64,000 nt of DNA from Escherichia coli (GCF_036507355.1 NZ_AP027877.1), one strand, 5' to 3'; positions 60,535-62,111 are shown, counted from the first letter of the stretch. Numbers and translations: made by a program. Notes: a model not told the origin generated them from the letters alone.

Positions 60535-61671
60535 TTAGGCGAAAATATCAACGCCGCTGTTGCCTGTTACACGCCCTTGTAAAGAGACGGGAACCGGAAG
60601 CGTATCGTCGTCTTCCCCCGCCAGAGGTTCATGGTTTGCTGTGCGTTGGCTTTGCTGTTGCTGGGAAGCGGCCTGCTGCTGACCACTAAAGCTTTCGCCA
60701 CTGATGTTGCTTTGCCCTAACTGAATGCCACTTTCGGCCAGCTGCGTACGCAGTACCGGCAGCGCAGCTTCCAGGGCGGCGCGTACGTGTTGATGCGGTG
60801 AAACCATCTGGATTTGCGCCTGGTTATCATCCACTTTGAGGGAGATTTGCACTTCACCTAAATCCTGCGGGTGCAGACGCAACTCTGCACTTTGTTGCCC
60901 CTGGCGGGTGAACAGCGAAATATGCTGGCTTAATGATTGTTGCCATTCGTGAGAACCCAGCGGTGCACTCAAAACAGGCGCGGCGACGGTGGGCAGTGGC
61001 TGTGTCTGGTGTGGAGTGATTAGCGGGCTGGCGGCAGCGGTCACCGGTGAAGGTGTGCTGATGACTTCCGCTTTACTCTGGGCTTCTGCTACCAGCGGTG
61101 TTAATGGCTGAGCTGGCGTGCCGGGGGCATCATCAGGCTGTGCTGTTGTGAGTTGCGCAGAAGTCAGTTTTGTGAAGAGCGTTGGTTTCTCTGCCGGTAA
61201 CACGGTTGACGGCACATCAGTCACTTTGGGCGTATTGTCAAAACCCGGCAACATCGCAAAAAGGGCGCTCAGGCTTGCGGTGACGTCTTCATTCAGATCA
61301 TCCGCTTTTTCGTCTTTTGTCGTATTTTTGTCAGCCACCGCAGCCACCGCAGCCAACGCCATCGTCTGAGCGGTGGTTAACGGTGTTGATGTGGATTGTT
61401 CGTCGTTGATGACAGGCGGTGTTTCATCCACAGGTATCAGTAAATCCGCTTGTTGCGCGTCGGAAACAATATCGCTGATCAGCGGCTCGCCTTTTGTCGT
61501 AGGCTTATCTGTTGCCACCAGCAACTGGGGGGCCGCTTTGTCGGTAGTTGTCTCGCCTGCTAATGCTTCGCTCAACAACGCGAGAAAATCTTGTGCAGCA
61601 TCGCTGGCTTTGCCGCCAGGCAATGTGGTGGTGTCAACGTCGGCGGTAATCAAGGGCGCTAAGCGAATCAT
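60535..61671 (-). CDS. fliK: Flagellar hook-length control protein FliK
   Basis: 378-aa Pro/Gln/Thr-rich protein. Confidence 0.9.
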
Positions 61672-62111
61672 TCAGGTTTCCTCATGGCGGCGCGCTGGGC
61701 GAACTCATCCATCTTTTTCTGATCGAGGCGGTTTTCTGCAAGCAGTGCCGCCGTGGATTGCCGTTCCTGCAGTGTCTGCTAGGCCTGCAAACGTTGTTTC
61801 TTTTCTCGCCAGCTGTTCAGGGCAATGTCAACTTTCTGCGTCCACTGATTAAGTTGCTGGCGATGCTGAGTAATGGCTTTTTCCAGCGTCTGGATAAACT
61901 GCTGATAGTTGATCCAGCGGTTGCTGGTCATCCCGGCACTCATATCGCTGTTGAGGTTATTGCGATATTCATTCTGATAATCGATCAGCATTTTGAGCTG
62001 TTCTTCCGCCTGCTGACACCCGCGACGCATTTCACCCAGCAGGCGCGCGGCATCCTCTACCTCTTTTTCTGCCAGATCTTTCAGGGTCGCCAGCGCGCCA
62101 TGTTCTGCCAT
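61668..62111 (-). pseudogene. fliJ: Flagellar export chaperone FliJ with in-frame amber stop at codon 111
   Basis: ORF stops at TAG (plus-strand cta 61779..61781); the same frame continues 36 codons to TGA overlapping the fliK start; total exactly 148 codons. Confidence 0.85.

Follow-up and report, generated by a model that had tools for sequence, protein, structure and literature searches.

A nonsense allele of fliJ in Escherichia coli, inherited in a small sublineage, with its amber codon at a former Dcm site

Introduction

Does an in-frame stop codon in an otherwise well-preserved flagellar operon mark a real and inherited loss of function, and if so, by which route did it arise? The question is raised by fliJ in a stretch of 64,000 nucleotides from Escherichia coli (GCF_036507355.1, NZ_AP027877.1; the whole of this stretch is referred to here as the window), in which the reading frame of the gene meets an amber codon (TAG) at codon 111. 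FliJ acts on the flagellar export gate, which it activates via FlhA (PMC9114704; PMC3195256), and an allele that ends early might be a benign variant, an error of sequencing, or a lesion with consequences for the motility of its carrier.

The comparisons show that fliJ in this genome carries an inherited change from Trp111 to amber. Taking all lines of evidence together, we consider it probable that the change came about through deamination of 5-methylcytosine and that export is poorly activated and motility reduced as a result. As an amber pseudogene in a flagellar gene that is itself well characterised, the lesion is of a known kind, with the same codon already flagged in RefSeq, and it holds no new biology. 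The new element of the analysis is the Dcm context of the amber codon, i.e. a C-to-T change at the one cytosine of fliJ that is a target of Dcm methylation.

A nonsense allele of fliJ

Translation of 62111..61668 on the minus strand yields 110 residues (MAEHG...RLQA), a stop, 36 further residues (QTLQERQ...MRKPE), and the terminal stop, 148 codons in total. The initial annotation, made from the sequence alone, had described an in-frame TAG at codon 111 of fliJ (plus-strand cta at 61779..61781), followed by 36 open codons up to a TGA that overlaps the fliK start and by a total length of 148 codons, and the translation bears out each of these points. The overlap takes the form ATGA, composed of the terminal fliJ TGA (61670-61668) and the fliK ATG (61671-61669).

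The same annotation had attributed the interruption to a single nonsense substitution with the gene end unchanged, and the comparison with other strains agrees. The only difference between the fliJ of the window and the intact fliJ of strain ATCC 8739 is at gene position 332 (G to A), which turns codon 111 from TGG into TAG. Codon 111 is TGG in K-12, in every wild-type locus compared, and in L006 (SRR10687779) and L007 (GCA_019297395.1), two relatives that were found by an exact match to the FliK of the window. Orthologues that normally end at codon 110, a possibility raised at the outset, were not encountered among those examined: the FliJ of Salmonella (PDB 3AJW) has 147 amino acids with Trp at position 111, and in a set of 5186 complete E. 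coli genomes, all but four (5182) lack the 61-mer that carries the TAG.

The homology to characterised FliJ proteins extends over the whole frame (146 of 147 residues identical to ATCC 8739 and 145 of 147, or 98.6%, to K-12), the match to Salmonella FliJ 3AJW has an E-value of 5.5e-81, and the Pfam family PF02050 (FliJ) is listed on the 110-residue product. The gene order in the window is fliH-fliI-fliJ-fliK-fliL-fliM-fliN-fliO-fliP-fliQ-fliR, with fliJ between fliI and fliK as in the fliF operon. The genes fliI and fliK to fliR each encode a full-length product, with 98-100% identity to its K-12 counterpart. A second lesion in fliH, hinted at by the list of open reading frames, was sought and none was found, the frame being open up to the edge of the window; likewise, no insertion sequences (ISs) or deletions were found in the fli operon of the window. 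The fliJ of this genome is a nonsense (point-mutation) pseudogene, or shortened allele, and not an intact member of its family, as an uninterrupted frame of ~147 codons is absent. The coordinates of the features discussed here are collected in Table 1.

Table 1. Positions, within the 64,000-nucleotide window, of fliJ, its parts, and the other features that bear on the allele
Feature	Position	Strand	Remarks
fliJ pseudogene	61668..62111	-	147 codons plus stop; TAG interrupts at codon 111; PGAP 'internal stop' on the identical TUM9757 sequence
Translated FliJ residues 1-110	61782..62111	-	Helix 1, hairpin, and helix 2 residues 63-110 retained
Amber codon TAG, wild type TGG (Trp111)	61779..61781	-	Plus-strand CTA; mutated base 61780 is T, wild type C
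Former Dcm site	61779..61783		CCAGG in wild type, CTAGG in the window; sole CCWGG in fliJ; inner C (the base methylated in Dcm sites) changed
In-frame untranslated fliJ remnant, codons 112-147	61671..61778	-	Codes for the last 31 helix 2 residues (112-142)
GAGGAA Shine-Dalgarno-like motif (putative)	61678..61683	-	In the untranslated fliJ remnant; its GAGG core stops 8 nt short of the fliK ATG
fliK	60535..61671	-	Intact, 378 aa; start overlaps the normal fliJ stop
dcm (DNA cytosine methyltransferase)	47730..49148	+	Intact, 472 aa, 99.8% identical to K-12 Dcm
vsr (very-short-patch repair endonuclease)	49129..49599	+	Intact, 156 aa, 99.4% identical to K-12 Vsr
serU tRNA-Ser (supD locus)	36495..36584	+	Wild-type CGA anticodon, no amber suppressor

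Origin of the mutation

Around position 61780, the plus strand reads GTCTGCCAGGCCT in the wild type and GTCTGCTAGGCCT in the window. Single transitions can create a stop codon at 28 positions of fliJ, and the observed one alone coincides with the inner C of a Dcm site. Sites of the sequence CCWGG are an established hotspot of G:C-to-A:T change at the methylated base, and T:G mispairs in the context CTWGG/CCWGG are normally repaired by Vsr (PMC2715241; PMC13250602; PMC10710837); the 5-methylcytosine hotspot was also studied by Lieb (1991), as cited in PMC2715241.

Because dcm is intact, the strain is predicted to methylate the fliJ site, and the mutation would then be an event that escaped repair. 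In the proposed course of events, Dcm would methylate the inner C of the wild-type CCAGG at 61780, the resulting 5-methylcytosine would deaminate spontaneously to T and leave a T:G mispair, and this mispair, if missed by very-short-patch repair, would be fixed as CTAGG, i.e. as a change from TGG to TAG on the coding strand. The amber hotspots at CCAGG sites of lacI, reportedly described by Coulondre, Miller, Farabaugh and Gilbert in 1978, are the classic 5-methylcytosine case, and they share with the window a C-to-T change at the inner Dcm cytosine that makes an amber codon in dcm+ vsr+ E. coli. They differ in that the lacI changes convert CAG to TAG, whereas the fliJ of the window went from TGG to TAG through the complementary strand; moreover, the gene concerned here is flagellar, the carriers are natural isolates, and the link to Dcm is read from sequence.

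The alternative that has to be weighed most seriously is that of an ordinary G:C-to-A:T replication error that fell into the Dcm site by chance, with selection for the loss of flagella accounting for the recurrence of the allele. G:C-to-A:T is the commonest spontaneous change in any case, and loss of flagella is a frequent adaptation of host-associated E. coli. The coincidence described above speaks against this alternative, since the base that changed was the one methylated position among the 28 transition-to-stop sites. Further evidence on both sides comes from the distribution of nonsense alleles of fliJ in other genomes.

Of 5186 complete RefSeq E. coli genomes, four contain the 61-mer centred on the W111-TAG codon, namely TUM9757, E92, E94, and NR301, which represent three lineages, E92 and E94 being near-identical bovine isolates. 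In all four, PGAP calls fliJ a pseudogene with an 'internal stop'. Control 61-mers for five other nonsense variants (W111-TGA, W101-TGA, W101-TAG, Q109-TAG, and Q112-TAG) were found in none of the complete RefSeq E. coli genomes, so that W111-TAG is the only one of the six variants tested that occurs there; if the six were equally likely, the probability of three independent lineages falling on the same one would be ~0.005. In a collection of 15 billion proteins, the exact 110-residue product is represented by 175 blocks, in at least 10 different genomic places, and the TAG carriers compared over the 7.7 kb from fliH to fliR make up at least 11 haplotypes, which lie 58-213 SNPs apart in pairwise comparison.

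Although the 444-bp fliJ of TUM9757 is 100% identical to that of the window, the flanks of the two are only 97.9% identical, and the best identity over the fli region among the complete RefSeq E. coli genomes (5426 genomes) is 98.7-98.9%. TUM9757, E92/E94, and NR301 share the codon-111 TAG of the window, yet their fli flanks are ~2% removed from it (141-186 SNPs in 7.7 kb). No other TAG carrier comes closer to the window than 140 SNPs, compared to only 3-5 for its wild-type sisters; because its flanks are this far from the other carriers and this close to sisters with TGG, its TAG arose separately, and we regard an independent origin in the lineage of the window as secure on the strength of these distances. 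For the remaining carriers, independent origins would be the simplest reading.

At codon 111, the backgrounds with TAG and TGA stand in a ratio of 11:1, compared to 3:5 at codon 101, which is outside any Dcm site (Fisher p=0.018). Since both stops at codon 111 yield the identical protein, the excess of TAG over TGA should be mutational in nature, the leakiness of the stop codons aside. This excess and the sole presence of W111-TAG in complete genomes count against a chance replication error. In favour of it, non-Dcm nonsense alleles (W101, W90, Q109, and Q112) are also seen repeatedly in very large collections; because nonsense alleles recur at several sites of fliJ, tolerance of, or selection for, the loss of the gene would add to the recurrence. 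On balance, an excess of independent events at codon 111, as expected of a Dcm hotspot, has only moderate support from these mixed comparisons, and we judge the chance replication error to be unlikely, while still deserving some weight.

Stops at Trp101 recur in the public assemblies L023-L036 in at least eight backgrounds (five with TGA and three with TAG); the contigs L035 and L036 end at fliJ codon 100-101, which may mark a target of ISs or a break in assembly. Counts of blocks by FliJ product length were considered as a hotspot test as well. Such counts are confounded by contig-end fragments (~45-56 blocks below 2 kb for every length tested, which were set aside) and by the sampling of clones. 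Restricted to blocks with a longest contig of at least 2 kb, they came to 127 for 110 aa, 113 for 100 aa, 24 for 89 aa, 19 for 111 aa, and 15 for 108 aa. Stops at codon 101 are thus about as abundant as those at codon 111, which is not singled out by this test, and the case for a hotspot is weakened accordingly.

With deamination at the Dcm site as the preferred origin, the allele offers a tidy natural case of the textbook route from Dcm 5-methylcytosine to an amber codon, apparently taken repeatedly at one flagellar codon in wild E. coli. One might go further and see in fliJ codon 111 a 'contingency' site driven by Dcm and Vsr, a crude and partly reversible switch of motility, and many independent forward events (TGG to TAG) are indeed seen. 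Were this so, Dcm would make the forward change frequent and supply variants deficient in flagella (of use against flagellin-directed immunity, or in saving cost), and reversion from CTAGG to CCAGG would also be favoured, through Vsr-biased repair whenever a T:G mispair forms. We hold this to be a long shot.

Predicted effect on FliJ and motility

The AlphaFold model of FliJ consists of two helices (residues 3-58 and 63-142) that form a hairpin (pLDDT 91), in agreement with the published antiparallel coiled coil (PMC9114704; PMC3195256; PMC3665681). According to the published work, the tip of the hairpin with the conserved residues Q38-H83 projects from the FliI6 ring and binds the FlhA linker, and the opposite end of the coiled coil, where the N and C termini pair, enters the ring in the manner of the F1 gamma subunit (PMC9114704; PMC3195256; PMC3665681). 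The residues lost here (111-147) include 32 of the 80 residues (40%) of helix 2, at the end that is inserted into the ring, and 33 of the 37 (89%) are identical between E. coli and Salmonella.

Translation is expected to end after residue 110, and the product would probably be unstable or unfit to serve as the central stalk. The export gate would then be poorly activated and flagellar assembly inefficient, leaving the strain poorly motile or non-motile, a reasonable prediction that the initial annotation had also made. Efficient export depends on FliJ, but the protein is not an absolute requirement, as occasional flagella form without it (PMC3195256), and for this reason 'poorly motile' is the safer of the two terms. 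We thus infer a defect of flagellar assembly and motility that is severe but possibly leaky.

Two known situations resemble this one in part. In Salmonella fliJ null mutants (Minamino et al.; PMC3195256), the stalk protein is lost and export becomes inefficient without being abolished; those mutants make no FliJ at all, whereas the window encodes a fragment of 110 residues, the effect of which is predicted. The decay of flagellar genes in non-motile E. coli and Shigella is similar in that an export gene is inactivated by a point mutation and pseudogenes (here drpB, dgcQ, and yeeJ) lie nearby, but differs in that the other fli genes of the window, from fliH to fliR, are intact and the operon is free of ISs and deletions. 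If this is a case of flagellar gene decay, the window represents an early stage of it.

A different reading of the same structure is that FliJ(1-110) is functional enough, in which case the allele would be nearly neutral and swimming more or less normal. The FlhA-binding hairpin (Q38-H83) survives in the fragment, as does the greater part of the coiled coil (~10-58 with 63-110), export does not absolutely require FliJ, and the many backgrounds that carry the allele with their other fli genes intact would fit with it. The 89% identity of the deleted 37 residues to those of Salmonella, which implies constraint, tells against this reading, as do the position of these residues at the stalk end that enters the FliI6 ring, the presence of the allele in only 4 of 5186 complete genomes, and second hits in fliR or fliI in some carriers. 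Weighing these points, we find a functional fragment improbable and retain loss of function with reduced motility as the predicted outcome.

Lesions in addition to the amber codon were seen in several carriers, namely a frameshift in fliR of TUM9757 (L001/L014), a split of fliI into parts of 375 and 82 aa in L012, and an internal stop in emrE of E92/E94 (L003/L005). The extra fli lesions in TUM9757 and L012, together with the flagellar changes of the window relative to its sister (see below), lend weak, indirect support to the loss of FliJ function. In the literature on the carrier strains TUM9757 and NR301 and under the locus-tag prefix VEE46, nothing on motility was found. For the strain of the window, motility and the display of flagellin are predicted to be reduced or absent, which would bear on H-serotyping (the likely result being H- or weakly motile) and on colonisation.

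Readthrough and translation of fliK

The loss of function would be averted if the amber codon were read through, by a suppressor tRNA encoded elsewhere or because UAG followed by C is leaky, to an extent that yields enough full-length FliJ. A stop codon followed by C is reportedly a comparatively weak terminator, according to Poole, Brown and Tate in 1995. Background readthrough usually stays far below 1%, and amber-suppressor alleles are very rare among natural isolates, both of which weigh against this idea. The window contains five tRNA genes (serU, with the anticodon CGA, and four tRNA-Asn genes), and within it, the stretch covered by the suppressor check, the only suppressor locus (serU/supD) is wild type. 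In favour of readthrough, one FliJ per export apparatus suffices (PMC9114704), and the frame remains open as far as the normal stop. The open frame is, however, explained by the recent date of the mutation, as sisters with TGG are 3-5 SNPs away, and we deem readthrough very improbable. A re-initiated C-terminal fragment of FliJ was considered and rejected, there being no suitable start past the TAG but Met133, which leaves just 15 residues.

Under the preferred reading, in which translation of fliJ ends at the amber codon, 108 nt between this codon and the normal end of the gene are untranslated. The start of fliK would normally be coupled to the fliJ stop, and the amber codon may have a mild polar or uncoupling effect. 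Because the putative GAGGAA motif (Table 1) should permit independent initiation, the polarity on fliK is expected to be modest only.

Inheritance within a sublineage

L006 and L007 differ from the window at three and five of 6466 bases, respectively. Each of the three bases at which the window departs from L006 alters a flagellar protein, the changes being FliI N58K (63330), FliM R240H (59243), and FliJ W111*. Changes of FliI and FliM that alter the protein fit with a relaxed constraint on flagellar genes, the numbers being too small for a test.

FliM R240H is rare and was found in nine contigs, of which the two listed, L037 (GCA_016660925.1) and L038 (GCA_021425525.1), both have the same fliJ TAG. 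Additionally, the E. coli proteins BED21987, BED21989, and BED21990 are exactly the FliM, FliK, and shortened FliJ of the window. The TAG is not a base-calling error, because it stands in these two other assemblies of the sublineage, and from the sequences compared the amber codon is a real, derived, and inherited marker of a small sublineage. That it might be an artefact of sequencing or assembly in the source genome, for which nothing specific speaks except that a single base is involved, is effectively excluded, since two NCBI assemblies from the sublineage, made independently, have the same base, as do many unrelated ones, and since the change is a substitution and no homopolymer indel.

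Within the amber-bearing sublineage, the copy number of a 9-bp tandem repeat in fliK (Ala-Ala-Val; window ~61340-61390, minus strand) varies, and the FliK of the window has 378 aa, that of L038 381 aa, and that of L037 384 aa, compared to 375 aa for K-12.

Other features of the window

Three further genes of the window are inactivated. In drpB (yedR; 46626-46928, plus strand), Trp34 is replaced by a stop (TGG to TGA, at 46725-46727; base 46727 is A where K-12 has G) outside a Dcm site. The diguanylate cyclase gene dgcQ (yedQ; 52030-53725, plus strand), which is tied to the switch between motility and biofilm, is inactivated too, by an additional G at 53095 (TTCGGGC compared to TTCGGC in K-12) that shifts the frame and ends it at codon 408 of the 564. 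The inverse autotransporter adhesin gene yeeJ (31565-35057; 2339 aa in K-12) is cut short after residue 753, as it meets an IS3-family element of ~1.23 kb (31565-32798, with a transposase ORF at 31588-32400) at 32799; neither the remainder of yeeJ nor yeeL is found ahead of shiA. Typing of this element through plasmid matches gave the IS3 family only and is uninformative on taxonomy.

The window has, between cbl and yeeO and adjoining a tRNA-Asn gene (25217-25292), an island of ~8 kb (~17100-25300) that K-12 lacks. It contains an integrase gene (23789-25066), an IS1 transposase gene (19076-19579), and a 345-aa ORF (17794-18831) that resembles the antiviral reverse transcriptase Drt4. With 195 bits, this ORF falls short of the cut-off (450), and its match spans only positions 4-333 of the 489 in the profile, so that it probably represents a defence gene in truncated form.

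Between sbcB and dacD, a cluster of three genes (3771-6512, minus strand) includes a 304-aa ORF for a GtrB-like bactoprenol glycosyltransferase, and no NCBIfam family matched the 120-aa and 488-aa ORFs beside it. The position and size of the genes suggest an O-antigen-modifying set of the gtrA/gtrB/gtr(type) kind. Finally, an intact 405-aa ORF for an OmpC-family porin (44809-46026, minus strand; 540 bits, NCBIfam cut-off 484) stands in the place of the yedS pseudogene of K-12.
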